Source of the DNA: Squalus acanthias
Taxonomy: Eukaryota
Assembly (NCBI GenBank): GCA_030390025.1
Contig: CM059431.1
Span: 128,776,001-128,840,000 of the forward strand
Length of the DNA: 64,000 nt
Reading direction: 5' to 3'
Shown: positions 1,270 to 38,400 of the stretch, piece by piece
Position numbering within the stretch: the first letter of the stretch is position 1
Layout: the number at the start of each line of letters is the position of its first letter
The notes under the pieces: model-generated
The model's database searches: none
Told to the model about the DNA's origin: nothing
What the model saw: the letters and a program-made list of their open reading frames with translations, nothing else
Made by a program: the position numbers and the translations under genes

Positions 1270-2483
1270 TTAAGTAAATCTGGCCATGATGAGCCCATCC
1301 CTGGCCTCTCGGGCAGTAATGTGCTCGGGTGCTGGTGGGATCTGGACTGCAGGTTCCTCCAGCTCATCCTCCTCTTCATCCTCTGAAGAGGCTGTGTGCT
1401 CAGTGCCTTGCTCCTCATGCAGCGCTAATCCTCACTGCTGTGCTATGTTGTGCAGGGCGCAGCAGACCACGACAATTCTGGAGACCCTGGCCAGTGCGTA
1501 CTGAAGGGCTCCTCCAGATCTGTCAAGGCATCTGAAGCGCATTTTCAGCATGCCTATTGTCTGCTCTATGACACATCTGGTGGAAATTTGGCTTTCATTA
1601 TAGCTCTCCTGTGCCTCAGTACTTGGCCTCCTCAAGGGTCTCATGAGCCACATCTTCAGTGGATCGCCCTTGTCTCCAAGCAGCCAGCCGGAAAGTCTGT
1701 TTGGAGGAACAAAGAGCTGAGGGAGGGTGGACAGGCACAGGACGAAAGAGTCATGACGGACGCCAGGAAATTTTGCGCGCACATGCATGATGATCTTCCT
1801 ATGGTTGCAGACCAGCTGCACATTGAGGGAGTGGAAGCCTCTGTGGTTGACAAAGACTCCTGGGTGATGATGGGATGCCCTGATGACCACATGTGTGCAG
1901 TCGATGATGCCCTGCACCCGTGAGAAGCCAGCCAGAGTGGCAAAGCCGAGCGCCCGCTCAGTAACACTGGCTTCATCAGTGGCAAAGTTGAGATAATTGG
2001 CTGACTTGTCAAACAGGGCATTGGTGACCTGTGTGATGCATCTGTGGCCGGCCGTCTGTGATACGCCACTAATGCCCACTGCAGATCCCTGGAAGGAGCC
2101 TGAGGCGAAGAAGTTGAGAGCGCTGGTGACTTGACAGCCACTGGTCAGGCGTGTCCACCGGCTAATTTGAGCTGCAGGTCTTACTCCAGCAATGTGCAAA
2201 TGTCTGCGATGACCTGACGCGATAGCCTGAGCCTCCTTTTTGCACTGCTGCTCAGTCATGTTGAGGAAGCTCATCCTCTGCCTGTATACCCTGTGTTGGG
2301 TTATTGCCTCCCGCACGGAGCAGCCCTGCGCTGATGCCCTCTGTCCTGTGCAGCATCAGGTGTTTGAGGAGAAGGTTGGTGCTGTTGTTGTTGGTGCTGC
2401 TGTTGTGCCTGGTGCTGCTGGTGTTGGGGCTCATCGTGGTCCGATCCTGAGGACCAAGGTGAGACAGTATAAATGGCACCAAT
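1270..2483 (-). pseudogene. Harbinger DDE transposase (HARBI1-like), frameshifted
   Basis: Motifs [68 protein letters not shown]. The Q/H-rich N-terminus is in another frame. Confidence 0.92.
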
Positions 2484-5649: not shown

Positions 5650-7467
5650 CAAGTATGTAAAAAGGAAGAGAGTAGCAAAAGTAAACATTGGTCCCTTAGA
5701 GGCTGAGACAGGAGAAATCATTATGGGGAATAAGGAAATGGCAGAAACGTTCAACAAATATATTGTATCTGTCTTCACAGTTGAAGACACAAAAAGCATA
5801 ACAAAAATGGTGGGGATCCAAGCATCTAATGAGGGTGAGGAACTTAACGTAATTAATATAAGTAGAGAAAAAGTACTAGAGAAACTAATGGAAATAAAAG
5901 CCGACAAATCCCCTGGACCTGACGGCCTACATCCTAGGGTTCTAAAAGAGTTGGCTGCAGAGATAGTGGATGCATTGGTTTTCTTCCAAAATTCCCTAGA
6001 TTCTAGAATGGTCCCAGCGGATTGGAAGGTAACAAATGTAACACCGCTATTCAAGAAAGAAGGGAGAGAGAAAACAGGAAACTACAGGCTAGTTAGCCTG
6101 ACATAGGTCATCAGGAAAATACTGGAATCCATTGTTAAGGAAGTGGTATCAGGGCACTTAGAAAATCATAACATGATTAGGCAGAGTCAACATGGTTTTA
6201 TGAAAGGGAAATTGTGTTTGACAAATGTATTAGAGTTTTTTGATGGTATAACTAGCAGGGTAGATAAAGGGGAACCAGTGGATGTAGTATATTTGGATTT
6301 TCAAAAGGCATTCGATCAGGTGCCACATATTAGGTTATTACACAAGATAAGGGCTCATGGGGTTGGGTGTAATATAGTAGCATGGATAGAGAATTGGTTA
6401 ACAGACAGAAAACAGAGAGTAGGGATAAACAGGTCTTTTTCAGGTTGGCATGCTGTAACTAGTGGGGTGCCGCAAGGATCAGTGCTGGGGCCTCAGCTAT
6501 TTACAATCTATATTAATGACCTAGATGAAGGGACCGAGTGTAATGTATCCAAGTTTGTTGACGATACAAAGCTAGGTGGGACAGTAAGCTGTGAGGAGAA
6601 CACAAAGAGTCTGCAAAGGGATATAGATAGACTAAGTGAGTGGGCAGTAAGGTGACAGATGGAGTATAATGTAGGGAAATGTGAGGTTATTCACTTTGAT
6701 AGGAAGAATAGAAAAACAGAATATTTTTTAAATGGTGAGAAACTTTCAAATGTTGGTGTTCAGCGAGATTTGGGTATCCTCATGCAAGAAACACAGAATG
6801 CTAGCATACAGGTATAGCAAGCAATAAGGAAGGCAAATGTCATGTTGGCCTTTATTGCAAGGGGGTTGGAGTATAAGAGTAAGGAAGTCTTGCTACAATT
6901 ATGCAGGGCCTTGGTGAGACCACACCTGGAGTACTGTGCACAGTTTTAGTCTCCTTATCTAAGGAAGGATATACTTGCCTTGGAGGCAGTGCAATGAAGG
7001 TTCACTAGATTGATTCCTGGGATGAGAGGGCTGTCCTATGATGAGAGATTATGTAGAATGGGCCTATACTCTCTGGAGTTTAGAAGAATGAGAGGTGATC
7101 TCATTGAAACATACAAGATTCTGAAGGGGATTGCCAGGGTAGATGCTGAGTGGTTGTTTCCCCTGGCTGGAGTGTCTAGATCTAGGGGGCATAGTCTCAG
7201 GATAAGGGATAGGCCATTTAAGACTGAGATGAGGAGGAATTTATTCACTCAGAGAGTTGTAAATCTTTGGCATTCTCTGCCCCAGAGGGCTGTGGATGCT
7301 GAATCTTTGAGTATATTCAAGGCTGAGTTAGATAGATTTTTGGACTCTAGGGCAATCAAGGGATATGGAGATCGGGCGGGAAAGTGGAGTTGAGGTCGAT
7401 GATCAGCCATGATCTTATTAGGTGCCCGTATGGCCAACTCCTGCTCTTATTTCTTATGTCCTTATGT
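5650..7467 (+). mobile_element. CR1 LINE, 5'-truncated, decayed ORF2 RT
   Basis: [42 protein letters not shown]; 3' tail CTTATTTCTTATGTCCTTATGT. Confidence 0.93.
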
Positions 7468-8049: not shown

Positions 8050-8595
8050 CCATTCCCTTTTCCCCTTTACCTGCCTCTTCTTACCAGTTGATTTGGGGTA
8101 GACAAAATCTCCAATGATTATTATTCTAGATCTTTTACTCATTTCATAGCTTTGCTTACATATTTTTTCCTCCACCTCTCTTCCACTATTATCTAGTCTG
8201 TGGAATACCTCTATTAGCGTGATCAATCCCTTCTTATCTTTTATCTCAACCCGTATGGATTCTGTTTCTATTGTACTGTTAGTTACATTGCTTTTTTCTA
8301 CTGCCATTATGTTATCTGTAATTAGTACAGCTACTCCACTCTCCCTCCTTCCTTCCCTATCCTTTCCAAATATGTTCTAACCTGCAATATTTAATGGCCA
8401 GGACTGTTCTTTCTTTAGCCATGTTTCAGTTATCCCAACTAGATCTGGTTCCTCGCTATGTATTATTGCCTCCAGTTCCCCCATTTTATTTCGGACGCTG
8501 TGCACATTGCTGTACAGGCAATTTAATTCATTTTTATTAGTCGTTCCTCTCACTTTATTTTTAACAGTCTTTTTATACTTCTGTTCTATAACTGT
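8050..8595 (-). mobile_element. CR1 APE endonuclease fragment (target of the LTR element)
   Basis: CLYSNVHSVRNKMGELE, DLVGITETWL, ESIRVEI, IIIGDF.YP. Confidence 0.85.
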
Positions 8596-8745
8596 TGTAA
8601 AATTCGCAATTATCGCGATTCGAAATAACGAGACAAAGCAGATTCGTTTCACCAGCTTTATTTCAACGAAATGCTGTCATGATTAAACAGAAATGAGAAG
8701 TCGCACAACACCAGGCTATAGTCCAACAGATTTATTTAATTTTAC

Positions 8746-8776
8746 AAGCTTTCGGAGCTGTCGCTCCTTCTTCAGG
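8746..8776 (-). ncRNA. Minimal hammerhead ribozyme motif (inverted pLTR copy)
   Basis: Reverse complement reads CCTGAAGA-A-GGAGC-GACA-GCTCC-GAAA-GCTT. Confidence 0.75.
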
Positions 8777-8946
8777 TAGGGTAGCTGTGAGAGAATCTCC
8801 CAGAATTCACAATATAAACACAGAAAAAATGTATTCAAATCAAAATCAAATCAAAACAACGCAACGCCATCCACGCTCTCAAGACCAACCGCAACATCGT
8901 CATCAAACCAGCGGACAAAGGAGGAGCCATCGTTATACAGAACAGA

Positions 8947-10706
8947 ATGGACTATTGCAAAGAAGCATACCGACAACTGGACAACCAGGAACACTACAGA
9001 CAGCTACCCGCAGATCCGACCAAAGAACACACCCGCCAACTCAATAGACTGATCAAGACCTTCGATCCAGACCTTCAAAACATCCTACGCGCTCTCATCC
9101 CACGTACTCCCCGCGTAGGAGACTTTTACTGCCTCCCAAAGATACACAAAGCCAACACACCCAGACGTCCTATCGTATCAGGCAACGGAACCCTGTGTGA
9201 GAACCTCTCTGGGTACGTCGAGGGCATCCTGAAACCCATCGTACAGGGAACCCCCAGCTTCTGTCGCGACACTACAGACTTCTTGCAGAAACTCAGCACC
9301 CATGGACCAGTTGAACCAGGAACACTCCTCGTCACGATGGACGTATCGGCACTCTACACCAATATCCCCCACAATGACGGCATCGCTGCGACAGCCTCAG
9401 TACTCAACACCAACAACAGCCAATCTCCGGATGCCATCCTACAACTCATCCGCTTCATCCTTGACCACAATGTCTTCACCTTCGACAACCATTTTTTTAC
9501 CCAAACACACGGAACAGCCATGGGGACCAAATTCGCACCCCAATACGCCAACATCTTCATGCACAAGTTCGAGCAAGACTTCTTCGCTGCACGGGACCTC
9601 CAAACAACGCTGTACACCAGATACATCGACGACATCTTCTTCCTTTGGACCCATGGCGAAGGATCACTGAAAGGACTACACGATAGCATCAACAGGTTCC
9701 ATCCCACCATCAAACTCACCATGGAGTACTCCTCAGAATTGGTTTCATTCTTGGACACACGAATCTCCATCAAAGACGGACGCCTCAGCACTTCACTCTA
9801 CCGCAAGCCCACGGACAACCTCACGATGCTCCACTTCTCCAGCTTCCACCCTAACCACGTTAAAGAAGCCATCCCCTATGGACAAGCCCTGCGAATACAC
9901 AGGATCTGCTCAGACGAGGAGGAACGCGATGGACACCTACGGACACTGAAAGACGCCCTCGTAAGAACGGGATATGACGCTCGACTCGTCGATCGACAGT
10001 TCCGACGGGCCACAGCGAAAAACCGCATAGACCTCCTCAGAAGACGAACACGGGACACAACCAACAGAGTACCCTACGTCGTCCAGTACTTCCCCGGAGC
10101 GGAAAAACTACGCCATGTTCTTCGCAGCCTTCAACATGTCATCGATGACGACGAACACCTTGCTAAGGCCATCCCCATGCCTCCACTACTCGCCTTCAAG
10201 CAGCCGCCTAACCTCAAAAGTACCATCGTTCGCAGCAGATTACCCATCTTTCAGGAGAACAGCAACCACGACACCACACAACCCTGCCACGGCAACCTCT
10301 GCAAGACATGCCAGATCATGGACACAGATACCATCATCACACGTGAGGACACTACCCACCAGGTACATGGTACATACTCATGTGACTCGGCCAACATTGT
10401 CTACCTGATACGTTGCAGTAAAGGATGCGCCAGAGCATGGTACATCGGCGAGACCATGCAGACACTGAGACAACGTATGAACGGACACCGCGCAACAATC
10501 GCCAGGCAGGAGGGTTGCCTCCCAGTCGGGGAACACTTCAGCAGTCAGGGGCATTCAACCTCGGATCTGCGGGTAAGCGTTCTCCAAGGCGGCCTTCAGA
10601 TACACGACAGCGCAAAATCATAGAGCAGAAACTGATAGCCAAGTTCCGCACTCATGAGGATGGCCTCAATCGCGATATCGGGTTCATGTCACGATACAGA
10701 ACGTGA
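8947..10706 (+). pseudogene. Penelope RT + GIY-YIG endonuclease ORF (5'-truncated, one frameshift near 10600)
   Basis: Upstream in-frame IKPADKGG; LPKIHK, RPIVS, MDVSALYTNIP, GTAMG, RYIDD, FLD; C-terminal CxxC, IVYLIRC..WYIGET, GLN. Confidence 0.95.
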
Positions 10707-10938
10707 CTTGACATCATGGCCGGTCTTTCCAGGTTTTTTTTAAAAAAAACTAACACAAGAACCAACACAAATGGAGAGGATATGCAGCCAGCAGGTGTTT
10801 TGACACGTTGGACCCCCTGGGACACATCTCATTGTCTTGGCTGTGCTCTTAGTGTGTCTTTGATGTAGGGAAAGATTTGAATACATTTTTTCTGTGTTTA
10901 TATTGTAAATTCTGGGAGATTCTCTCACAGCTACCCTA

Positions 10939-10969
10939 CCTGAAGAAGGAGCGACAGCTCCGAAAGCTT
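10939..10969 (+). ncRNA. Minimal hammerhead ribozyme motif in Penelope pLTR
   Basis: CUGANGA core (10940-10946), stem II GGAGC/GCTCC, GAAA core, palindromic AAGCTT in place of stem III. Confidence 0.8.
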
Positions 10970-11971
10970 GTAAAATTAAATAAATCTGTTGGACTATAAC
11001 CTGGTGTTGTGCGACTTCTCATTGTTGTCCACCCCAGTCCAATGCCGGCATCTCCACATCATGATTAAACAGGACACAGAAGCCTGTAAAATGGCCGCCG
11101 CGCCTCGTGGCAGAAGCTTCCAGAATTTTCAGTGGGCAGACAAGATGGCGTTCGAATAAACATTTCAGTATAAGATTGGATAATACGCAGCAAACACTGA
11201 TAAAGACAGGATGCAACCTGTCTGCATTCGACACAATAGCAAAGATATAAGTGCTGGAATCATTTTCCATGCACAAGTAAGGACCATTGTACTGGGCAAT
11301 CGAAGGCCCATCCAGATACATCAATACGCAAATTCCCCACGGCTCTACAATGAGAGAGCCATTCTCGGGTGATTAAGTCAGTATTCGAGGAGGCCCCAAA
11401 ACCAGTCAGGGAGACTCCTAGCCGGTTCGACAATGGGGAAAACATTAATGGATAGTTGGCCAGTTTAAGGTGCTACCGAAATCCATTAAAGGAAAGAATC
11501 GCCCCATGCTGGGAGTTTTGTGCACCAGTATTACACAAAGGACAAACATCAAGATTTGAGCGGGAGATAAGGGAACACAGCATTATAACTATAGTGAACA
11601 AATGTCCATCGCTCTCTTGACTGTTTTATCTCGCTGATGACTGCTGAACTTTTATTCTCCTATTCTGATCCTCGGGTATCGCTCTGCTGGACGAGCTGCT
11701 TTCTGTTTTTCTCTGGACTCTGTTGACTATGTTGGGTGGAGCTCGAACGGAACGAGCCGCCTCGACGAAGGCCAGTGACCGGGTGCACCATCCCGAGAGT
11801 CGGTAAACTTTGTCTGGACCCGAAGAGACGAGACGAGATGAGACGAGAAGAAGAGGAGAAGAATCCACGTACCGCCACGGTCAGTAAACCCCGACCGCGC
11901 CCGAAAATACAAGAAAGAACTGCAGCGAAACGAGCCGAGTGCCTCGTTTAAAATTCTCCGAAGTATCACGA

Positions 11972-11980
11972 GTGGTGAGC
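11972..11980 (+). promoter_or_regulatory. Candidate major splice donor inside the LTR (GTG|GTGAGC)
   Basis: Consensus-like donor between the TATA-like box (about 11584) and AATAAA (12186); the same motif is present in the solo LTR. Confidence 0.5.
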
Positions 11981-12185
11981 ATGTTTCCCGATTCTACAAA
12001 TCTAGATTAGTGTAGGTATTGATAGGGGAGGGTGGTTTTATTAAGGATAAATATAATGTGTTCCCCTTTTTACGATGTGCCGTGCGTTCCTCATTACCCT
12101 AGACCAAGTTTTATGAATGTATGTATACTTGTACTGTCATTAATTTGTGCCTATGACATGTACTTCATGATTTTGGACGTTATGC

Positions 12186-12191
12186 AATAAA
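12186..12191 (+). terminator. LTR polyadenylation signal AATAAA (copy at 19581-19586)
   Basis: Canonical hexamer about 235 nt before the LTR end, followed by GT/T-rich sequence. Confidence 0.65.
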
Positions 12192-12428
12192 GATTTCCAT
12201 TTCGTACTATTCAACTGGGTCTAGTTGAGTTTTTCTCTGCATTACTGCTCTCGCACCTAAGTCCAGTGTTAGAACCGTAAGGGCGAGTGGGTCGAACCAC
12301 TCACAGGTGCTTATTGCAACAAGGCTGGCCGGAGACCAGAGCAAGCAATAGTATTAGGCAACGAAGGCCTAACCCCGCACCAGCACCGGCTGCGATACAA
12401 GCACCGACGACCGAACCCCTTACAGAAA

Positions 12429-14228
12429 ATGGCGACCACGAAGGGACATTGGCAGCGAGAGAGTAATGTTTTAGACCCTGGTGTGAATAGGCGAAATGTG
12501 ATGGATGAGAGGGTAGCCGACTATGTGTTTGGGAAGGTCAACTTGACCAAAAGGTGGATAAGTGACCTACTGATGGATAAGCGTCCGCTAGACGCAGCCA
12601 TCAAATGGACAGACAGCAAAGAGCATAAGAAGTCAGTAGAGAAAGCGGTCTGGCTGATGTGCTACAAGAAGCAAGTCCAACTTTCGGACCAGGTCATTGT
12701 AGCACAGGCAGCTCAGATCAGGGATTTGGAAGTTGAGATGGAGGAAAAGGTCACGGGAGGACAGAAACTCATCGCATTCTTGAGCGCGTTACATCAGGAA
12801 CGCCAGATAGTAGCCAACCACCATGAGGCTAAAATAGATTACCTAGAGTGTCAGGTCACGGAAGCGAAGTTAAACGAGGGTAGGATTAAAGAACGGTGTG
12901 CCCGCCTAGCTAACCAGATAAGAGCCCAAGAAGAAAGCTTGAAGGGAGTTAGGGCGGCATATAAGATGGCCCTCGAAGATAAGCATGAGGGAGTCGACCA
13001 CAGTGTTTGCCAGAAGGAGATAGGGAACCTAAGAGAGGCCCTGAATAAGGCAAACGGCATGGTGTGCCTAATCAGCCCGTCAGCTCAACAGCCACAGGTG
13101 GGTAGGGAATTCCCAAAATCCCTACCAGACAAAGCAGAGGAGGTATTTGCCACTGCACCCTCCGCGCCACCCAGCTATTCGGCAACCTGGGTAAGGGAGG
13201 AAGTGGTGGAAATAGAAGAGGAGGTCCCTGAGGTAGGACAATCCCCAGAGGTAGTGTCGAAGCCGGGACCGTTGTGTCCGCTGACAGGTCACAAGAGGGG
13301 CCCGAACGGAGCCAATGGGGAGAACGGGGATGTCCTGAACCAGCTTGTGTTGCCTCACAGCTCACACCAGCTGAGAGCAATGATTAGTCATGTACGGAAG
13401 CTGTCTGAGTCAGACGACCCTTCCGTACACTTCAGGGAGGTAGAACAGACCGCAGCAATTAATGGCTGCGACGATGCGGAAAAGACTAAAATGTTGCTGT
13501 TCTCGTTAGATAGCTCGATCCTTCAGTGTCTCTCAGACGAGAGCAAGAGGGGAAATAATACCTATGAGGAGTTAAGGGACGAGGTCCTAGAAGTGTTGGG
13601 GGCGGATGACGAAGGTCCGTTCGTTAGATTGGGTCAGACAGTTGAGATGGAGGGAGAACCCCCGAAGGTTTTCGCCGACAGGCTGTGGCCAGTATACCAG
13701 CGTAGCTGCCCAGGTGCGCCAGCGCGCCACCACCTGGACGGTGCTGGTTTAACTCATTGGCTCAGGTGTTTAGTAGCCAACAGTTTGCCAGCCGTCAGGG
13801 AGCAGGCCAAAGCGTGGTTTGATCCCACTAACCCCGCCACAACAGAGGAGTCGGTCCTAAATCGACTCACCATAGGGTATCGGAACACTAGGAGCACGGG
13901 AGCGCGTCCCCTTAAGGGAAAGGTGCATGAGGCACGGCCCGCAGCCCCGGCTCAAAAGGAGTGGCATCAGGAGGGAAACCGCGCCCCACAGGCCAGTGGT
14001 GCTTGTTACGGGTGCGGAAAGATAGGTCACTGGTATAAAAACTGCAGGAATCCCTGGAAGGATTCCAGGGAAAAAGCTCCCGCAGTCCGAACCCAAGCGC
14101 CTGTCTCTGAGAAAGGAGCTGGTGTGCCTATCCATCCCGATGCGATAGAATCAATGTTAGGAGCCATGCGGTCTCTTATGATTTCGCACGGGGAGGTAGC
14201 AACAGCCCCATACAACCCAGACTTCTGA
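12429..14228 (+). CDS. gag: Gag-like polyprotein: long coiled coil, PSAP-like motif, capsid-like region, CCHC zinc knuckle
   Basis: Uninterrupted 599-aa ORF right after the PBS (true start may be ATG 12501); CYGCGKIGHWYKNC knuckle; PSAPPSY late-domain-like motif. Confidence 0.88.
   Translation: MATTKGHWQRESNVLDPGVNRRNVMDERVADYVFGKVNLTKRWISDLLMDKRPLDAAIKWTDSKEHKKSVEKAVWLMCYKKQVQLSDQVIVAQAAQIRDLEVEMEEKVTGGQKLIAFLSALHQERQIVANHHEAKIDYLECQVTEAKLNEGRIKERCARLANQIRAQEESLKGVRAAYKMALEDKHEGVDHSVCQKEIGNLREALNKANGMVCLISPSAQQPQVGREFPKSLPDKAEEVFATAPSAPPSYSATWVREEVVEIEEEVPEVGQSPEVVSKPGPLCPLTGHKRGPNGANGENGDVLNQLVLPHSSHQLRAMISHVRKLSESDDPSVHFREVEQTAAINGCDDAEKTKMLLFSLDSSILQCLSDESKRGNNTYEELRDEVLEVLGADDEGPFVRLGQTVEMEGEPPKVFADRLWPVYQRSCPGAPARHHLDGAGLTHWLRCLVANSLPAVREQAKAWFDPTNPATTEESVLNRLTIGYRNTRSTGARPLKGKVHEARPAAPAQKEWHQEGNRAPQASGACYGCGKIGHWYKNCRNPWKDSREKAPAVRTQAPVSEKGAGVPIHPDAIESMLGAMRSLMISHGEVATAPYNPDF
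12430..12447 (+). other. Primer binding site complementary to tRNA-Arg 3' end
   Basis: TGGCGACCACGAAGGGAC is the reverse complement of ...GTCCCTTCGTGGTCG-CCA (vertebrate tRNA-Arg(TCG)-type 3' end, from recall); lies 5 nt downstream of the LTR. Confidence 0.85.
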
Positions 14229-15307
14229 CTGGAACCGGTGCAGCCTGCCTACCTGTGTCCCCTTGAAAGACGCGCACAGGAGGGGGTCTCCTGTAAGGAG
14301 GCCAGGTTAAAAGAGCAGGCCTTACGGGAGGAGAACGCCCGTTTAATGGGGAAAGTAGACGGGCTGGAATGGCAGCTTAGAGACATAAAAGCAGCCTACA
14401 GGGTAGCCAGGAGCAGGGAGTATGAGGATTTAAAACAAAATAGAAATCTGCAGCCTCCAGCAGGCGAGATTTCACAGAATGCACAAGCAGGGGCGGTGGC
14501 CTGTCTTAGGGGAGGGGCCAGCCCTGCGAGTGGGGACTCTCAGCCCCAAGCAGGACAGCAGGGCACACAAACCGGTAAAGCAGCCTGCTTGAGGGGAGAG
14601 GACATTCTAGGAAAGTGTAAATCTTTTCTTGGGGTTGGGATTCCGATGAGGAAGAGCTCGAGGAGCTCGACCAAGATAGTGACCCGATCGGAGAGGTGCT
14701 GAGATCGGAGGACGAAAGGTTCGTCCTCGACTCAAGCTTAGGGGAGATAGGGATTGCGAGTGGAGATCCACACAGGGTGGAATCAGAAACTGCAGGTCCC
14801 GAGCCCAGGGGGGCAGAGCTAGGGGAGACGGAGCCAGCGGCTGTGGTAGGACCACAGGTCGTGACGGTGGAAGTCTCGGAACCCGGTCCGTCAGCCTTGG
14901 AAGCCTTGCCCTTGGGGGAGGTAGGGATTGCGAGTGGAGGACCACATACTGGGCCAAGTAGGGTGGTACCAGAAACTGCAAATCCCGAGTTCAGGGAGGT
15001 GGAGCCAGGGGAGACGGAGCCAGCGGCTGTGGTGGGACCACAGGCCGCAACGGTGGAAGTCTCGGTACCCGGTCCGTCGGCCCTGGAAATCTTGCCCAAT
15101 GTAGCCCTCCGTAGGTCAAGTCGGACACCCCAGCCCAGGAAGTCATGGTCAAGTCCCCCGTACACCCCCAGGCGTAAGTTCAAGGTCAAGGCAGCCCAGG
15201 GAGATCCCAGTCCCAGCGCAGCAGCGACAGGCTGCGGCAGATCAAAGGAAGGGGTCAGTGCCCTCCCACCGTTGGGAAAAGCTTGTGGCAGCCTTCGCAG
15301 AATTTAG
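14229..15307 (+). pseudogene. Unknown ORF in pol position: Gag-like coiled coil, acidic tandem repeat and basic tail (probable single frameshift near 14630)
   Basis: In frame with gag after TGA. EARLKEQALREENARL..IKAAYRVA resembles Gag EAKLNEGRIKERCARL..VRAAYKMA. No PR, RT, RNase H or IN motifs. Confidence 0.55.
14738..15097 (+). repeat. Two-copy tandem duplication (about 175-185 bp unit)
   Basis: LGE.GIASG.PH...ETA.PE.R..E.GETEPAAVVGPQ..TVEVS.PGPSALE.LP occurs twice. Confidence 0.9.
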
Positions 15308-15592
15308 GTAGGCCACCCTGGGAAAGGGCGGCGCTGTACAGTTTATAAGTTTAGGATAAGGATAAGTTTATAAGTTTAAGTTATAGTTTTATAAGTTTGG
15401 TAAGATTGTAGTTTAATTTTAAAAGTAAGTGGTAAAATGATGGGAGTCAGAGATAGGAATAGTTAAAGTCTATCCAGCATACATGTCGTTATATGTGAGA
15501 CGAGGTCAAGGGACCCGCTCACCCTTCACAAAAGCCAGAGACTCTTGGGAGGCTGGCTACATCATTTTATCTGATCACAGGAACCACGAAAG

Positions 15593-17944
15593 ATGGAACG
15601 GATTCTGCTAGTGCTCGCAGCGATCGGATATGGATTGGCCTATCGGGGCCTTACCAAGGATGTTGTTGTGTTTGGTTGCTCCGGGGACACGGCCCCCATC
15701 ACGACGGATGGGACCGGGAAGCGAAAGGCTGAGGAGACCGCCACCTATTTCCACAAGGGAAGGTGGCCGGGATGGCTGGGAACGAATTCAACGGAATACT
15801 CTAGTGCATCGGGATTTGCCTACAAAGAGACTTCTTTACTGTGCCCCAGAGTGAGGATCATTGCACCCAGAATCAGCGTCACTGTCGGCAAAAGGATTTG
15901 TTTGACATGCAATGGGAAGGTCCCATTGAGCCGATGGTGGTGGTTACGGAAATTGAGCAAGAATATGAGAAATTCCTCGGTCGAGTGGGAGCGGTTGGGT
16001 AACAATACCCATCGGACAATTACGGGGACTAACTGACAATTGAAAGTCTGTTGGGACAAATGGTGGGAACCGGATGAGGGAATATATGTTTGTATGTGGG
16101 GATCGAAGTACGTTTGCACCAAGGGTATATCCATATTTTTCGTAAACCAGTAGCAGGATAACGGGAAAGGGATGAGGTGGGATGTCAGCACCAGGGGGTG
16201 CGGAGCTCCATACTCCCTGATCCCGGTAAACGCCACTGAACTCATCACGCGCCCACGCAAGGCCCCGCCCACGATTCCGGTGGTTTTGGCTCAGGAGGAA
16301 GGGTGCCCTAAAACCACTAAGGGGCCCGGGAATGGTTTGGTATTGGTCCCAACAGACCAGATACTATTTCAGGGGGTACATTACGCGGTGGCCTCGGTGA
16401 TTTTAAATCTCACCAAGGTGCGGTTGCCAGAGTGGTGCCCCAAAGCAACGGAACAATTGTACCAGGTCCTGTTGACAAACATGTTCAGACAATTCTACGA
16501 GTTTGATTTTGCAGAAATTGACAAGACAAGCTTGTACACCACACCACACGAAGTTTTGGGTCAGGTGCGGAGACAAAGGAGGGGCATTGTGAACGATATG
16601 TTCACCGCCTTTAATATAGGAACATCTGTGGTCAACGCTCTAGACAACGTGGAGCTGCAGACCCAGATCAATGGTTTAAAAACACAATTAAAAAGCATCC
16701 TCACAAGAGAAAACAAGGTAGTAGGGTCTGAGTTACAGGAGGACCAGGCCATGACGCTACACTTAAAGGAAATTATAGCAGAGCTGGAGAAGCATGCGAG
16801 AACGGTAAATGCCCTGATTACGGAAGATCGGAATGCATCCGATCAAGCTGCGCAGAACGAGGTGTGCGTACTATACGGGGCGTGGTTACTGGGCGAGGGC
16901 CGCAGTAATTTGGAGGATTTAAAACAAGGTTTGGTCCCATCCTGGATAAGTAACAAACACCTGCAGGCGCTCCACCCTTTTCAGAACGCATTAAGCCCGT
17001 GCCAGCTCAGGCTAGCCTCAGAGGCATACCCAGTCCCCGTGGACTGCGGACGGTCAAACCATACCATCATGGGTATAGTATTACGTATGCCGGTTTTGGG
17101 CGACACAGCAAAGCCTGCCCCGGTGTATCGGGTAGAGAACATTGGTGTCATTCAGGGGGGAGCCCACATTCGCTACGCAGCGGTCCCACCTTACGTCATC
17201 CGCTGGGAGCAAACGATGACAGGTACCAATCTCTCGGGTTGTCGTGGCCGGGGAGCACACATAATCCTGTGTCCCTGGCACTTGAATGCCTTCTTAACAC
17301 CACAATGTGGGTTCAGAACGGCTGGCGCCAAGCCCATGAATTGCACCATGGAGGCAATGACACAAGATCATGTGCCTCCGCAGGTGGCATACATAGGGGG
17401 TGGAACATATTGCGTTACCACTGCAGCGCAACACTACCAGCATGGAAACCGCAGCCGGTGTCCGGTGAGTGACAGCAGTTTCTGTTTTAAACCCAGGGCT
17501 GAAGTTCAAGTGGCACAGCAGCGAATTGTCCCGATCCCTGAACCATCCACTGTTCATCTAACAGTAAAAGAGAATTTCACCGACTTCCAGCGATTCGTCG
17601 CACATTTCGGATACATCATTCCCCCTCTCCCTGAACACCTCACCAAGCTTTTGAAAGCAGTCGCGGTATCGCAAAAACATTTTTACACCCTAGAACAAAA
17701 GACTGTCGAGATAGGGACAGAAATTCTAGACATAGTAATCCCACCGTGGTGGGACGTGTTCACCAATATTGAAGTGCCTTCATGGATCAGAATAGCCTCC
17801 CACATTTTAGTTGTGTGCCAAGTAATAATTGTAGTGTACCTATTGGTCGTGCACTGCAAGAGAGGCAAGTGCCTCACAAAGCAGGAGAACACAGGAGAGT
17901 GGAGAGAACGTTACGTGCGCGTGCACGAGGAAAGCGCCGCGTAA
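15593..17944 (+). pseudogene. env: Envelope glycoprotein: signal peptide, Ig-like domain, class I F-like fusion protein, TM; two in-frame stops (16034 TGA, 16151 TAG)
   Basis: ORFs 15593 and 16172 share a frame. Signal MERILLVLAAIGYGLA; C..W..DEGIYVC; furin site RRQRR/GIVN; heptad repeat; Cys-rich region; TM ILVVCQVIIVVYLLVV; splice acceptor at 15580. Confidence 0.85.
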
Positions 17945-18355
17945 ACGGCCAGGATGACGCCGCTCCATTTTACCATGTGTGTTCTTGTAATTGAAGATAT
18001 GTAACCAAGTTGGGAACTTTGTATTTTAAAAGAGTTGTTTTTGATTATTTTTAACTTTTGTATTTTTAAAATGGTTGTTTGATTATTTTTTTTCCTTGCA
18101 TAATAAAATACATATACAGGTGGTGCGAGAGGCATCGGCCTCTTGCACCTGGAAGACGTATATGCGATGTAAGTTTAAAAGGCAATACTGCCTACGGTTT
18201 TGTCCAAGTTAGATAATGTAATTTTTCCCTGGGAAATGAGGACGGCATGGAGACCCTAGATAGTTTAAGTTAAGGGAGTGTTTGGATGTGGAGAATCGGG
18301 ATAATTTTGCTCACCACCACTTTTAATTGATACGATAAGCGGAGTTATTCGCATC

Positions 18356-18367
18356 AACAGGAGGGAC
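18356..18367 (+). other. Polypurine tract
   Basis: AACAGGAGGGAC immediately before the TG of the 3' LTR. Confidence 0.75.
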
Positions 18368-19819
18368 TGCAAAATTCGCAATTATCGCGATTCGAAATAA
18401 CGAGACAAAGCAGATTCGTTTCACCAGCTTTATTTGAACGAAATGCTGTCATGATTAAACAGGACACAGAAGCCTGTAAAATGGCCGCCGCGCCTCGTGG
18501 CAGAAGCTTCCAGAATTTTCAGTGTGCAGACAAGATGGTGTTCGAATAAACATTTCAGTATAAGATTGGATAATATGCAGCAAACACTGATAAAGACAGG
18601 ATGCAACCTGTCTGCATTCGACACAATAGCAAAGATATAAGTGCTGGAATCATTTTCCATGCACAAGTAAGGACCATTGTAATGGGCCATCGAAGGCCCA
18701 TCCAGATACATCAATACGCAAATTCCCCACGGCTCTACAATGAGAGAGCCATTCTCGGGTGATTAAGTCAGTATTCGAGGAGGCCCCAAAACCAGTCAGG
18801 GAGACTCCTAGCCTTTTTGACAATGGGGAAAACATTAACGGATAGTTGGCCAGTTTAAGGTGCTACCGAAACCCATTAAAGGAAAGAATCGCCCCATGCT
18901 GGGAGTTTTGTGCACCAGTATTACACAAAGGACAAATATCAAGATTTGAGCGGGAGATAAGGGAACACAGCACTATAACTATAGTGAACAAATGTCCATC
19001 ACTCTCTTGACTGTTTTATCTCGCTGATGACTGCTGAACTTTTATTCTCCTATTCTGATCCTCGGGTATCGCTCTGCTGGACGAGCTGCTTTCTGTTTTT
19101 CTCTGGACTCTGTTGACTATGTTGGGTGGAGCTCGAACGGAACGAGCCGCCTCGACGAAGGCCAGTGACCGGGTGCACCATCCCGAGAGTCGATAAACGG
19201 TGTCTGGACCCGAAGGCCCGAAGAGACGAGACGAGATGAGACGAGAAGAAGAGGAGAAGAATCCACGTACCGCCACGGTCAGTAAACCCCGACCGCGCCC
19301 GAAAATACAAGAAAGAACTGCAGCGAAACGAGCCGAGTGCCTCGTTTAAAATTCTCCGAAGTATCACGAGTGGTGAGCATGTTTCCCGAATCTACAAATC
19401 TAGAGTGTAGGTATTGATAGGGGAGGGTGGTTTTATTAAGGATAAATATAATGTGTTCCCCTTTTTACGATGTGCCGTGCGTTCCTCATTACCCTAGACC
19501 AAGTTTTATGAATGTATGTATACTTGTACTGTCATGAATTTGTGCCTATGACATGTACTTCATGATTTTGGACGTTATGCAATAAAGATTTCCATTTCGT
19601 ACTATTCAACCGGGTCTATTTGAGTTTTTCTCTGCATTACTGCTCTCGCACCTAAGTCCAGTGTTAGAACCGTAAGGGCGAGTGGGTCGAACCACTCACA
19701 GGTGCTTATTGCAACAAGGCTGGCCGGAGACCAGAGCAAGCAATAGCATTAGGCAACGAAGGCCTAACCCCACACCAGCACCGTCTGCGATACAAGCACC
19801 GACGCCCGAACCCCTTACA
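18368..19819 (+). repeat. 3' LTR (1452 bp)
   Basis: TGCAAAATTCG...CCCCTTACA followed by TSD CTGT. Confidence 0.95.
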
Positions 19820-19879
19820 CTGTATTTGTTTCTGACTGTTCATGTTATCGTTTTTCTTTACCTTGGTCTGACCTTATAA

Positions 19880-34300: not shown

Positions 34301-34466
34301 AATGGAGATTCATAACATATCCACCCCAACAAAAGTAAGCAAATAATGCACTATGACTGACGGCCTTGACCTTTGAAACCATGATAACAGGAGTGCATGC
34401 TATCATGGTTTCAAAGAACAGAGATGGAGGATCAGGCAGGTCGGGCAGGAATCCCCAGAGTGCATC

Positions 34467-35140
34467 TTGCTCCCTAACAGGTTCACAGTTCTGGAAACTG
34501 ATGAGGGTGATGGTTCCTCTGGGGAGAGTAGCCAGAGCCAAGATCCCGGCCCCACAGGTGGCTCAGCTGCACGGGGGGTGGGGGGGGGGGGGTGGTGCGG
34601 GGGTGGCGGTGGGGGGAGGAAGAAGATTGGAAGAGCAATAGTGATAGGGGATTCATTAGTTAGGGGAACAGATAGGTGTTTCTGTGGATGCAGGCGTGAC
34701 TCCACGATGGTATGTTACCTCCGTGGTGCCCGGGTCAAGGATGTCACTGAACGGCTGCAGGACACTCTGAGGGGGGAGGGTAAACAGCCAGCGGTCGTTG
34801 TCCATATCGGTACTAACGACACAGGCAGAAAGAGGGATGAGGCCCTGCAGGCAGACTACAGGGAGCTAGGAAAGAGATTAAAAAGCAGGACCTCAAAGGT
34901 AGTAATCTCCGGATTACTCCCGGTGCCACATGCTAGTGAGTACAGGAATAGGAGGATAGAACAGATGAATGCGTAGCTGGAGAGATGGTGCAGGAGGGAG
35001 GGCTTTAGATTCCTGAGGCATTGGGACCATTTCTGGGGAAGGTGGGACCTGTACAAGCCGGACAAGGTTACACCTCAACAGAGCCGGGACCAATATTCTC
35101 GCAGGAAGGTTTGCTAGTGCTGTTGGGAAGGGTTTAAACT
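34467..35140 (+). pseudogene. CR1 ORF1 SGNH/GDSL esterase-like domain
   Basis: NRFTVL, VIGDSLVRG, GARVKDV, VVHIGTND, VVISGLLPV, LHLN. Confidence 0.88.
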
Positions 35141-35463
35141 AGCTTGGCAGGGGGATTGGCACCAGCATATAGGAGTAGAAAGAGGAATAAGGTGCATAAA
35201 AGAGTGAGTGTGTTGAATAGTACTAGAGAAGAAAGTAGTACTAGAAGCGGAAGTAGTAACATATTAGATAGGAGCAGACTAAGAAAGACTACGAAAAATT
35301 CAAAAATGGGTTTAGAATGCATGTACGTAAATGCACAAAGTGTGGTGAATAAGGTTGGTGAGCTACAAGCACAATTAGCCATGTGGCAATATGATGTTGT
35401 GGCAATAATGGAAACGTGGCTTAAAAACGGTGAGGACTGGGCACTTAATATTCAAGATACAAG

Positions 35464-38400
35464 GGGCGCGATCTTACCAGCCCTGGGGAGGCGGGTTTGG
35501 AGGCGGGACTGCTGGGAAAATGGCAGAATCTGGGGGCGGGTACCCATCCCGCCCCCAACCCGCCTCCGTGCCATCTTGCCAGGAGGTGGGTAGCCGACCC
35601 GCGCCGGGTCCCGTCTCCTGGAGGCGGGAAGGGGATTACAGCCACTTAACGGCCTGTTAACAGATAGTTACCAGGCAGTTAAGAGGATTCAATTAGAGGG
35701 TGAGAAGGTTGGATCTCAAACAAGCGTGCTAAGCTTGAATAAAGGAGACTATGAAGGTATGCGAGCGGAATTGAGTAGAGTGGATTGGGAAAATAGATTA
35801 AAGGGTAAGACGACACATGATCAGTGGTGTACATTCAAGGAGTTATTTTACAACTTCCAAAAAAAATATATTCCACTGAAAAGAAAAGGGTGTAAAAGAA
35901 AGGACAGTCATCCGTGGCTAAGTAAAGAAATTAAGGATAGTATTCGACTAAAAACAAAGGCATATAAGGTAGCGAAATCTAGTGGGAGGACAGAGGATTG
36001 GGAAAACTTTAAAAGGCAGCAAAAAATAACAAAAAGATTGATTAAGAAAGGGAAGATAGATTATGAAAGTAAATTAGCAAAAAATATAAAAACAGATAGT
36101 AAGAGTTTTTATAGTTATATAAAAAGAAAAAGGGTGGCTAAAGTAAATGTTGGTCCCTTAGAGGATGAGACCGGGAAATTAATGGTGGGAAATATGGAGA
36201 TGGCAAAAACACTGAATGAATATTTTGTATCAGTCTTTACAGTAGAGGACACTAAGAATATCCCAACACTGGACAAACAGGGGGCTATAGGGGGAGAGGA
36301 GCTAAACACGATCAAAATCACTAAGGAAGTGGTACTCGGTAAAATAATGGGACTCAAGGCGGATAAATCACCTGGACCTGATGGCTTACATCCGAGAGTC
36401 TTGAAGGAAGTGGCGGTAGGGATTGTAGATGCATTGGTAATAATTTTTCAAAACTCCCTGGATTCCGCTAAGGTCCCGGCAGACTGGAAAACTGCTAATG
36501 TAACACCCTTATTTAAAAAGGGCAGTAGACAGAAGGCTGGTAACTATAGACCGGTTAGCCTAACATCTGTGGTAGGTAAAATTTTGGAGTCCATTATTAA
36601 GGAAACAGTAACAGGACATTTGGATAATCATAATTTAATAGGACAAAGTCAGCATGGTTTTACGAAGGGGAAGTCATGTTTGACAAATTTGCTGGAGTTC
36701 TTTGAGGAAGTAACATATAGAGTGGATAAAGGGGAACCAGTGGACGTAGTGTATTTAGACTTCCAAAAGGCATTTGACAAGGTGCCACACAAAAGATTAT
36801 TGCTTAAGGTAAAAAATCACGGGATTGGGGGTAATATTCTGGCATGGATAGAGGATTGGCTATCTAACAGAAAGCAAAGAGTTGGGATAAATGGTTCATT
36901 CTCAGACTGGCAATCAGTAACTAGTGGTGTTCCACAGGGGTCAGTGCTGGGTCCCCAACTCTTCACAATCTATATTAACGATTTGGAGGAAGGGACCAAG
37001 TGTAACATATCAAAATTTGCAAATGATACAAAGATGGGAGGGAAAGTAGTGAGTGAGGAGGACATAAAAAACCTGCAAGGGGACATAGACAGGCTAAGTA
37101 AGTGGGCAGAGATTTGGCAGATGGAATACAACACTGGAAAGTGTGAGGTGATGCACTTTGGCAGGAAAAATCCTAGAGCAATTTATTATCTTAATGGCAA
37201 GAAACTGGAGAGTACTGAAGTGCAAAGGGATCTGGGGGTCCTGGTGCACGAAACTCAAAAGGTTAGTATGCAGGTGCAGCAAGTGATTAAGAAAGCAAAT
37301 GGAATGTTGGCTTTCATTGCTAGGGGGATAGAATATAAAAATAGGGAGGTATTGCTTCAGTTGTACAAGGTATTGGTGAGACCGCACCTGGAATACTGCA
37401 TACAGTTTTGGTGTCCTTACTTAAGGAAAGACATCCTTGCTCTCGAGGCAGTGCAAAAAAGGTTCACTCGGTTAATCCCGGGGATGAGGGGGTGGTCATA
37501 TGAGGAGAGGTTGGGTAGATTGGGACTCTACTCATTGGAGTTCAGAAGAATGAGAGGCGATCTTATTGAAACATATAAGATTGTGAAGGGGTTGGATCGG
37601 GTGGATGCGGGGAGGATGTTCCCGATGACGGGTGAGACGAGAACTAGGGGACATAGTCTTAGAATAAGGGGCTGCTCTTTCAAAACTGAGATGAGGAGGA
37701 ACTACTTCACTCAGAGGGTGGTAGGTCCATGGAATATGCTGCCACAAAAAGCTGTAGAAGCTACAACATTAATTAAATTTAAAACAGAAATAGACAGTTT
37801 CCTAGAAGTAAAGGGCATTAAGGGTTACGGGGAGCGGGCAGGAATTTGGACATGAGTCTAGGTTCGGATCGGTCATGGCCCTGTGGGTAGTGGAGCGGGC
37901 CCAGGGACTGTGTAGCCTGATTCTGCTCCTATTTCGTGTGTGCAATTCTGTTAGAGGCAGGAGATGGTTCTGTGATAGATAGTAGATTGGCGGTTAGGAT
38001 CAGATCAGCCATGATCTTATTGAATGGCGGAGCAGGCTCGAGGGGCCGATTGGCCTACTCCTGCTCCTATTTCTTATGTTCTTATGTTCTTATGTTCTTA
38101 TTCTCTCCATTTTTCCAACAGAGACGCGGGCTTCCCAACGTCGGGAAACCCCGCCAGGGACACCGAGGCGAGCAGTGAGTCTGCGGGGTCCAAAAGTGCA
38201 CTGTGAAGGTAAGTGATGTGGAGAGCTAAGTATGTGAGGTGAGTGGAAAGTGATAGAAAATGTTTACTTACCTTTGTTTCTTCCTGCAGGCTTCAACAGT
38301 TGGGGATGCAGCGAGTCTCGCATCTCACCGGCCGAAATGACAGATGGCTGCTGCATTCTCCGATGCAACAACCATCTAATTTCTACAAAAGAAAGAGGTT

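Follow-up and report, generated by a model that had tools for sequence, protein, structure and literature searches.

Endogenous retroviruses (ERVs) that are defective and copied by a helper are well known, and in the sources available to us the described ones lose their genes wholesale or keep gag alone. The available text of PMC10924933 names several trans-complemented pairs, in which the ERVK[2-1-LTR] D-type of cattle goes with a C-type, ETn with MusD, IAP I-delta-1 with IAP, and recKoRV with KoRV-A. Also close are the lokiretroviruses, which carry gag, pol, and env, a dual RNase H, and an Env of the paramyxovirus F kind with a furin-type site (available text of PMC7947760 and PMC9040795). 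We analyzed a 64,000-nucleotide stretch of Squalus acanthias DNA (the window) and found a provirus that keeps gag and env but holds no pol domain. The explanation that we favor as a whole, with a probability of about 0.8, is that this locus holds an old copy, by now dead, of a non-autonomous ERV family, here called the satellite, which borrows its enzymes from a pol-bearing relative in the same genome, here called the helper.

The provirus occupies positions 8596 to 19819 of the window, on the plus strand, and consists of two 1.45-kb long terminal repeats (LTRs), gag, a slot filled by an open reading frame that we call ORF-X, and env. The first 95 bases of the 5' LTR (start of U3, TG...) lie at 8596-8690 and match 18368-18462, and the remainder (U3-R-U5, ending ...CCCCTTACA) lies at 11059-12424. 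The 3' LTR lies at 18368-19819 (1,452 bp, TG...CA). Aligned over 1,444 bases, the two LTRs show 27 substitutions (1.9%), of which one may be a slicing artefact. Outside them lies a 4-bp target-site duplication (TSD), CTGT, at 8592-8595 and again at 19820-19823. The primer-binding site (PBS) TGGCGACCACGAAGGGAC at 12430-12447 is complementary to tRNA-Arg(TCG): the gene for this tRNA in the same genome (C24, locus L067, found by ARAGORN) has the 3' end ...GTCCCTTCGTGGTCG, which, once CCA is added, is complementary to all 18 nt of the PBS. The gag start codon, at 12429, overlaps the PBS. A short purine run, AGGAGGGA, at 18359-18366, 1 base ahead of the 3' LTR, was read from the sequence as a candidate polypurine tract (PPT). 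The original prediction had named all of these parts, together with an open 599-amino-acid gag and a disabled env, and each was found again, the PPT as a short candidate.

The 5' LTR is split by a later insertion that does not belong to the provirus proper, a 2,368-bp Penelope-like element at 8691-11058 on the plus strand (RVT_1, E 5.3e-09). This element has a 601-aa reading frame at 8818-10623, with a reverse transcriptase and a C terminus that looks GIY-YIG-like by eye, as well as inverted terminal repeats, and it is flanked by a 14-bp duplication, TCATGATTAAACAG, at 8677-8690 and 11059-11072. Neither this split nor the 1-base frameshift in ORF-X was part of the original prediction. The decay of the window copy thus comprises the insertion, the frameshift, and two nonsense codons in env.

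Gag is encoded at 12429-14228 (plus strand, 599 aa) by an open frame that ends in TGA. It has a single CCHC knuckle at 14004-14045, for which a Pfam E value of 0.0014 was measured on another copy (L053). Structure prediction suggests long helices at the N terminus (aa 20-215), then a disordered linker and a helical capsid-like region (aa 312-488), in a model of poor quality (pLDDT 51.7). A Foldseek search with this model gave no match at E <= 0.001, and the weak rows above that value, to PNMA2, Ty1, dArc, MLV, and HTLV capsids, are a hint only.

The env frame, at 15593-17944 (plus strand, 783 codons), has two in-frame stops (TGA at 16034-16036 and TAG at 16151-16153) and no frameshift. The encoded protein has a signal peptide; its furin-type site is RRQRR (16568-16582), the fusion peptide starts at 16583, and 17792-17851 encode a membrane anchor. 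Env is predicted to have an F-type class I fusion fold like that of paramyxovirus F, based on an AlphaFold model of residues 188-783 (pLDDT 69.6). The top Foldseek matches of this model in the PDB were all paramyxovirus or pneumovirus F proteins (best E 2.7e-10, with 244 matches at E <= 0.001). Matches in BFVD were mononegavirus glycoproteins, F0, and baculovirus F, and also epsilonretrovirus Env, so the fold is not exclusive to lokiretroviruses. By sequence, the F-protein family PF00523 was matched neither by the pieces of the window Env (E up to 0.1), nor by the first 533 aa of the Env of copy L053 (E up to 1), nor by any of 15 Env relatives (E up to 0.01), one of which gave a weak Baculo_F match (E 0.0011).

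The slot between gag and env holds ORF-X (14229-15307, plus strand), which a 1-base frameshift splits in the window into 14229-14702 and 14621-15307 and which is intact, at 358 to 359 aa, in 23 of 30 other copies. A Pfam search of 14229-15307 gave no match to protease, reverse transcriptase (RT), RNase H, or integrase, in keeping with the earlier statement that the slot lacks enzyme motifs, nor did Pfam find these domains in L053, where ORF-X is intact. A PDB sequence search with ORF-X gave 0 hits, and the ESM Atlas matches of ORF-X were low scoring and uninformative. Its codons 1 to 18 match the N terminus of the helper Pol, codons 24 to 111 are a gag-like coiled-coil piece, and from about 14513 on it matches the C-terminal tail of Pol; it also contains a 186-bp tandem repeat (14774-14911 and 14960-15097). 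Because it is built of these parts, ORF-X is a rearranged deletion scar that stayed open, and not a foreign gene. The proposal that the slot holds a largely open reading frame therefore stands, while the proposal that this is a different gene gives way to a chimeric, in-frame pol remnant with a gag-like piece.

We found the same junction elsewhere in the genome. The whole 1.8-kb gag-slot-env junction is present in 38 other copies at 92 to 96% identity, among 40 scored candidates, and a junction 30-mer has 439 matches in the 3.7-Gb genome (<=3 mismatches). Since the architecture recurs at hundreds of places while reversed controls give 0, it is beyond chance. The idea that pol was deleted once, after insertion, from the window provirus alone is refuted: this junction, gag-like insert included, is found 439 times in the genome, and the border sequence is common to all 30 copies read, with the gag TGA followed by CTGGAA in 29 of them. 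The pol-less gag and env structure is thus a multi-copy family of several hundred copies, as had been proposed.

These copies could in principle have spread as DNA, by segmental or tandem duplication instead of reverse transcription. Six junction matches on chromosome C3 lie about 6,417 bp apart, five of these units being near-identical loci, and further evenly spaced sets occur on C1 and C12. The copies are nevertheless found on many chromosomes. On C8 lies a second complete provirus, with a TSD of its own (CTAA) and an LTR divergence of 1.8%, and 13 of the 24 LTRs for which both ends were located are solo LTRs with matching 4-bp flanks, each different from the others. These two proviruses and 13 solo LTRs, each with its own duplication, lie in unrelated flanks. 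Spread at the DNA level is therefore very improbable as a general explanation, and the distinct TSDs bear out the view of a family whose junction is not unique to the window. In assemblies from skates and sharks, relatives bear the gene annotation "uncharacterized protein LOC...," as might be expected if gag and env were host genes, domesticated and merely resembling a provirus. Yet there are hundreds of copies, with LTRs, PBS, and TSDs, and about half of them carry disabling mutations, so that domestication seems even less credible than spread as DNA.

The original prediction had further supposed a helper with a similar LTR and PBS, and such a relative is present in about 1,000 pol-bearing copies. 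We described it from one copy (C1:170405301-170414200, the 5' 8.9 kb; loci L065, L063, and L064), which has gag, an in-frame TGA, a 1,334-aa Pol frame in the same frame, and then the start of env. Pfam finds RVP, RVT_1, RT_RNaseH_2/RT_RNaseH, RNase_H, Integrase_H2C2, rve, and SH3_Tf2-1 in its Pol. Its PBS is identical to that of the satellite (18/18), the LTR end ...CCCCTTACA is common to both, and the last ~410 bases of the LTR (R-U5) are 83% identical. The two are 87% identical in DNA across gag (a 13% difference, with 18% in protein) and 87% identical from the pol tail to the env start, and the helper Env protein is 96% identical to the window Env (95 to 96% over the helper copies). The helper U3 does not align with the satellite U3, and the C terminus of the satellite Gag differs from that of the helper and is the satellite's own.

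A protease 30-mer of the helper has 1,005 matches (control, 0), and of 103 scored RNase H places, 14 are within open frames 1,460 to 1,508 aa long. In DNA, all 40 scored pol matches, the C1 copy itself included, are 97 to 100% identical. Two LTRs on C9 with 11.8 kb between them were rejected as a helper, the interior being LINE and Penelope-like reading frames and no provirus. The length of the open env frame (789 versus 826 to 836 aa) was likewise rejected as a marker of satellite and helper, as a pol-bearing copy (C4:54550038) has 789 aa.

The satellite goes back to an autonomous retrovirus of this genome (gag-pro-pol-env) and arose from it by one internal rearrangement, in which protease, RT, integrase, and the two RNase H domains were lost and the frame stayed open. 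The actual progenitor, or partner, may belong to another subfamily than the helper that we read. Helper copies are more uniform (97 to 99%) than satellite copies (92 to 96%), and the bursts of the two may not have been simultaneous.

Pairwise dN/dS over 17 colinear copies is 0.33 for gag, 0.57 for ORF-X, and 0.18 for env, and for variants present in at least 2 copies it falls to 0.22, 0.49, and 0.09, respectively. In addition, env is open in 60 of 73 scored matches (no stop in 596 aa). We conclude that gag and env are under purifying selection, although these ratios could partly reflect recombination with the helper or a transition/CpG bias.

Similar ratios might arise if the satellite were an ordinary, co-packaged deletion mutant that gains nothing from its gag and env and owes its low dN/dS to helper recombination or shared ancestry. 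The helper Env protein is as near to the window Env as are those of satellite copies, singleton variants also give ratios below 1, which hints at a bias in the measure, and the proportion of disabled copies, about half, fits a passive element as well. Against this, in a rough check for env exchange between helper and satellite, the best 40 env DNA matches, the window included, are 96 to 100% identical, and none of the six cross-matched helper copies is among them; the helper gag and env start fall outside the satellite diversity, at 87 to 93% versus about 96%. With a U3 and a Gag C terminus of its own, the satellite is a distinct and long-lived lineage, as opposed to a succession of new deletions. 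We therefore regard a passive derivative as unlikely.

Our preferred reading, a family that keeps structural and entry genes and borrows enzymes, is supported by the junction copies and by the pol-bearing relative with the same PBS. Trans-complementation by the helper is suggested by anatomy: the satellite has kept cis signals required by the enzymes of the helper, with a PBS for tRNA-Arg identical to the helper's, an R-U5 that is related and has the same LTR end, and a PPT candidate. The satellite U3 is probably its own promoter, since it does not align with that of the helper. In cells that also express the helper, satellite RNA would be packaged into particles with helper Gag-Pol, reverse transcribed from the tRNA-Arg primer, and integrated with a 4-bp duplication. 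The satellite Gag and Env would take part in particle formation and entry, which would explain purifying selection on both genes during diversification. Cross-packaging of helper and satellite is assumed only, given how far the two gag genes differ. Four contig sets presumed to be RNA contained short fragments at 90 to 100% identity with no leader-to-env joint and were uninformative on expression.

ORF-X follows the gag TGA in frame, in the position that Pol has in the helper, and a Gag-X read-through protein would therefore be expected. The 121 nt 3' of the gag stop fold no better than shuffled sequences (z -0.42), and with no stable structure after the stop codon, read-through into ORF-X is without support from a known signal. 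More tentatively, and as a possibility that we rate well below our main reading, the satellite could be a long-lived, separately evolving "half virus" with its own capsid, F-type envelope, and promoter, taking the enzymes alone from the helper in a two-component retroviral system in which Gag-X, carrying both ends of Pol and none of the enzymes, stands in for Gag-Pol in the particle. If so, Gag-X could recruit helper Gag-Pol or compete with it.

The affinity of the satellite and helper was predicted to be lokiretrovirus-like. The dual RNase H of the helper, a tether domain ahead of a second RNase H (RT_RNaseH_2, E 1.7e-21, and RT_RNaseH, E 2.2e-18, then RNase_H PF00075, E 5e-09), and the predicted F-type fold of Env agree with this; PF00523, by which lokiretrovirus Env is detectable, is unmatched by sequence here. 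Of 28 RT rows, 3 had too short a cover, and a tree was built from the other 25. In it, the helper and P0067, its nearest relative at 85% identity, fall in a poorly resolved group with frog and coelacanth relatives, and a 100/100 branch splits this group from six gypsy or plant rows, chromodomain gypsy among them. A Ty3/gypsy errantivirus, with its RT inside Ty3/gypsy and a single RNase H, does not fit this branch or the second, PF00075-type RNase H. The nearest named Pol relatives are annotated as "NYNRIN-like" or "Gypsy retrotransposon integrase-like 1." In the helper integrase, Pfam found SH3_Tf2-1 and not MLVIN_C, and the best PDB integrases are those of PFV (121 bits) and Ty3 (111 bits). 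The lokiretrovirus integrase is nearer the gypsy/CGIN1 type than the gamma- or epsilonretrovirus type, which the helper integrase may share on this indirect evidence, and coelacanth and frog relatives occur there too (available text of PMC7947760 and PMC9040795). Among PDB RTs the best match is MLV/XMRV (219 bits), followed by foamy virus (184) and Ty3 (139), and the in-frame TGA between gag and pol is a gamma- or epsilonretrovirus-type trait; the MLV-type integrase C terminus of that class was not found. A lokiretrovirus affinity is plausible, and the RT tree, made without labelled lokiretrovirus or exogenous retrovirus references, did not place the helper.

Within the available text of the founding lokiretrovirus paper (PMC7947760), none of the terms shark, cartilaginous, and Chondrichthyes appears, and a pol-less gag and env form is not found. 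No described gag and env, pol-less family of this lineage was found in the passages of the literature that were searched. A partial parallel is an alpharetrovirus-related avian ERV copy, which like the satellite has LTRs and gag and env sequence with no pol; in the text available, its gag and env are partial, and neither an in-frame pol remnant nor selection on both genes is described. The zebrafish element BHIKHARI-1 (available text of bioRxiv 10.1101/2024.03.25.586437) is likewise a non-autonomous lokiretrovirus relative with recent multi-copy insertions, and its long ORF is, as in the satellite, a Gag of about 600 aa that has a coiled coil at the N terminus as well as a CA domain. Unlike the satellite, it has this single ORF and no env, carries a glycine-rich tail in place of the CCHC knuckle, and is present in dozens of copies in a teleost, compared with hundreds here.

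The defective morphs of PMC10924933, in its available text, resemble the satellite in that a central segment is replaced or deleted, the flanks with cis signals are kept, and copy number is high beside competent kin. They differ in three respects. The bovine D-type is without any functional genes, whereas the satellite has gag and env open and constrained and lacks the enzymes alone; the satellite slot retains an in-frame pol remnant; and the satellite does not outnumber the competent form (about 439 versus about 1,005 by 30-mer counts). The split here separates the genes for structure and entry, retained under constraint, from the enzymes, all of them lost. The satellite lets one ask, in a natural setting, which retroviral functions have to be supplied in cis and which may come from elsewhere, and it is a case in which a family with a retained env has spread to hundreds of copies. 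Together with its helper, it is evidence for recent high activity of retroviruses with F-type Env and dual RNase H in a cartilaginous-fish genome.

Direct reading of the sequence, together with its repeats and open reading frames (ORFs), confirmed a provirus at positions 8596-19819 of the window, with gag and env and, as originally predicted, no pol. The 3' LTR (18368-19819) is 1,452 bp long and runs TG...CA. The 5' LTR now comprises 8596-8690 and 11059-12424, having been split by the later insertion of a Penelope-like element (8691-11058; 2,368 bp) with inverted terminal repeats, a 14-bp duplication at its flanks, and an open 601-aa ORF matching RVT_1 in Pfam (E = 5.3e-09). The predicted target site duplication (TSD) is present as CTGT on each side of the provirus. 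The LTR pair differs by 27 substitutions in 1,444 bases (1.9%), so the insertion is not recent. Another copy of the same family (L020, C6:102659912-102664235) carries a ~243-bp insert from the ends of the Penelope-like element at LTR bases ~82-95, the same position as in the window, so either this site is a favoured target or the insertion was inherited. One LTR subfamily (loci L030, L061, L062) has ~230 bp extra between LTR positions 940 and 951, and ~18 bases near the U5 end of the window LTR are absent from most LTRs. Further mobile elements in the window, at 1432-2355 (minus strand), 6107-6655, 34377-37855, and 40777-41919, comprise a DDE_Tnp_4 transposase ORF and three non-LTR-type RT ORFs, one of them preceded by a GDSL-lipase/OSK-like ORF match.

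The primer binding site (PBS; 12430-12447) is perfectly complementary to the 3' end, with CCA added, encoded by a tRNA-Arg(TCG) gene, in line with the predicted tRNA-Arg primer; a pattern search of the host genome turned up this gene, and ARAGORN confirmed it. Because the start codon of gag (12429) overlaps it, the PBS encodes the first Gag residues, MATTKG, and the N terminus MATTKGHWQ also occurs in skate relatives of 59-61% overall identity. As predicted, gag (12429-14228) is fully open, encoding 599 aa with one CCHC knuckle, and env (15593-17944) is disabled by two in-frame stops among its 783 codons. Pfam searches of the interval between them matched neither protease nor RT, RNase H, or integrase. 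Gag is predicted, in a poor model, to contain a CA-like helical region in addition to long helices at the N terminus, and a fold search with that model returned nothing significant.

The pol-less structure recurs across the host genome (3.7 Gb, 3,882 contigs), as expected for the "satellite" family that the original prediction proposed. The 1.8-kb junction stretch, from the end of gag through the gag-env interval (the slot) to the start of env, was found over all or nearly all of its length at 38 other places with 92-96% identity, and rearranged in one further copy, among 40 candidates scored of 5,119 from a first look. Across the whole genome, a satellite-specific slot 30-mer had 439 matches at up to 3 mismatches (0 for the reversed control) and a satellite-type gag-end 30-mer had 351 (control, 0). 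TSDs were distinct: identical 4-bp flanks, each different, were present at 13 of the 24 LTR loci where a script found both ends, the other 11 being mostly provirus LTRs or ends that the script misplaced. The provirus on C8 (L026, L044, L025) is a second complete copy built in this way, with CTAA as its TSD and 1.8% divergence between its LTRs. Six junction matches on C3 lie ~6,417 bp apart. This region (C3:64285925-64318037; L039, L040, L042, L043, L045) consists of six head-to-tail satellite units with that period, each with the same ~870-bp env deletion, and evenly spaced sets resembling it occur on C1 (~19.4 kb apart) and C12. Some copies are thus also amplified at the DNA level, on top of retrotransposition; the five near-identical C3 loci were counted once where it mattered.

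A pol-bearing relative was reached through P0023, an Env relative from a whale-shark gene model that also carries RNase H. Its RNase H scored at 103 places in the host genome at ~70% identity, a set that may include related families; on the same proviso, 14 of the 103 have open frames of 1,460-1,508 aa. One of these places has an env match 3.4 kb downstream and was read as C1:170405301-170414200 (L065, L063, L064). In this copy, gag is 87% identical in DNA to the window gag and ends in TGA followed by CTAG. TGA-CTAG is a leaky stop context. A 1,334-aa ORF in the same frame matches RVP, RVT_1, RT_RNaseH_2/RT_RNaseH, RNase_H, Integrase_H2C2, rve, and SH3_Tf2-1, a full PR-RT-RNase H-IN complement, and the tail, repeats, and env start that follow are 87-93% identical to the satellite. 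The PBS is the same at 18/18 bases, and the last ~410 LTR bases are 83% identical with the same end (...CCCCTTACA). The helper with similar LTR and PBS that had been postulated therefore exists. Upstream of those ~410 bases, this one helper copy did not align with the satellite U3. A 318-bp repeat (L065 18-335), 81% identical to window 34618-34935, lies upstream of the helper R-U5, so the helper LTR may be interrupted or begin later than assumed. All 40 scored matches to helper pol DNA, the C1 copy included, were 97-100% identical, and a helper protease 30-mer had 1,005 matches genome-wide (control, 0). We infer that the satellite is mobilised in trans.

The slot ORF, ORF-X (14229-15307), is split by a 1-base frameshift in the window. 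In 23 of the 30 loci read (19 of 26 with the C3 array counted once), it is a single open frame of 358-359 aa starting directly after the gag stop. The border reads TGA then CTGGAA in 29 of 30 copies, with TCA in the remaining one. Read-through from gag into ORF-X may occur. ORF-X had no match in Pfam or the PDB and only low-scoring, uninformative matches in the ESM Atlas. Against the helper, residues 1-18 match the start of Pol (67%) and residues 96-359, including a 62-aa tandem repeat, match the C-terminal tail of Pol and its continuation (68-79%); in a pairwise search, residues 24-111 resemble the coiled-coil part of Gag, residues 145-227 (30%, E = 4e-5). Judged by this comparison of sequences, ORF-X is an in-frame pol remnant with a gag-derived insert, not a foreign gene. 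The predicted open frame in the slot thus stands, but its reading as a different gene does not. The Pol tail retained by the satellite extends ~265 aa past the integrase SH3-like domain (L064 1500-2200; window 14513-15307) and contains two 62-aa repeats as well as an acidic stretch, with basic sequence at its end; it resembles no known family.

Helper and satellite env were sorted by cross-matching the coordinates of 73 env matches with those of pol DNA, protease 30-mer, and junction 30-mer matches. At least six lie ~5.3 kb behind helper pol, identified by pol DNA (C1:170.41M, C22:17.81M, C1:55.38M, C22:54.81M) or by the protease 30-mer (C4:54.55M, C1:184.78M), and at least seven lie ~1.85 kb behind a satellite junction. 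Env proteins of both types are 95-97% identical to the window Env. None of the six helper copies is among the best 40 env DNA matches (96-100%, window included), so helper and satellite seem, at the sequence level, to be distinct lineages with a strongly conserved env.

We measured selection in 17 satellite copies colinear over 4.8 kb; for env, the first 533 codons were used. Compared pairwise (136 pairs), dN/dS was 0.33 for gag, 0.57 for ORF-X, and 0.18 for env; variants common to at least two copies gave 0.22, 0.49, and 0.09, and singletons gave 0.44, 0.66, and 0.36. Singleton ratios below 1 are a warning that the measure runs too low or that many singletons predate the insertions. Among these copies, gag was open in 10, ORF-X in 12, and the env part in 8. 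Of 73 scored env matches, 60 lacked a stop over 596 aa, and by our own count 46 lie in open frames of at least 789 aa. Satellite Gag and Env may contribute to particle assembly and cell entry.

Env relatives numbered 4 by word-index search and 44 by exhaustive search, those named being from sharks, a skate, coelacanth, and frogs. In gene models P0003, P0011, and P0034, Env pieces are fused to Niban 1-like, cadherin-related 5-like, and fbxo15 host genes, probably annotation chimeras over ERV insertions. The Env sequence did not match Pfam PF00523. We modelled residues 188-783 from a 39-row alignment (the query, 36 of the 44 relatives, P0001, and P0063), leaving out eight chimeric or short rows. 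With this model (pLDDT 69.6), the top Foldseek matches in the PDB were paramyxovirus and pneumovirus F only (best E = 2.7e-10; 244 matches at E ≤ 0.001), and those in BFVD were mononegavirus glycoproteins, F0, and baculovirus F as well as the Env of a walleye epsilonretrovirus, pointing to a predicted F-like fold. Among named relatives of helper Pol, the nearest are "NYNRIN-like" proteins of frogs and "GIN1-like" proteins of coelacanth (42-50% identity). In the PDB, helper RT scored highest with MLV/XMRV (219 bits), with foamy virus (184), Ty3 (139), and HIV (61) following in that order, and helper integrase was nearest to PFV (121 bits) and Ty3 (111 bits).

Lokiretroviruses, in the portion of the account drawn on here, have dual RNase H, an F-like Env, and an integrase grouping with CGIN1 (PMC7947760). 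These traits fit the helper and satellite and make an affinity with lokiretroviruses, which are defined by the placement of their RT, plausible. That competent relatives can copy defective ERV morphs is well documented, with examples, in the sections of the sources used here, in ETn/MusD, IAP I-delta-1, recKoRV, and bovine ERVK C/D (PMC10924933). Also known are a pol-less EAV-HP copy in chicken (PMC3554524) and, in zebrafish, the gag-only lokiretrovirus relative BHIKHARI-1 (bioRxiv 10.1101/2024.03.25.586437). The satellite differs from these in its clean loss of all enzymes, in keeping both gag and env under constraint, in the in-frame pol remnant at the Gag-Pol position, in having its own U3, and in its few hundred copies alongside ~1,000 helpers.
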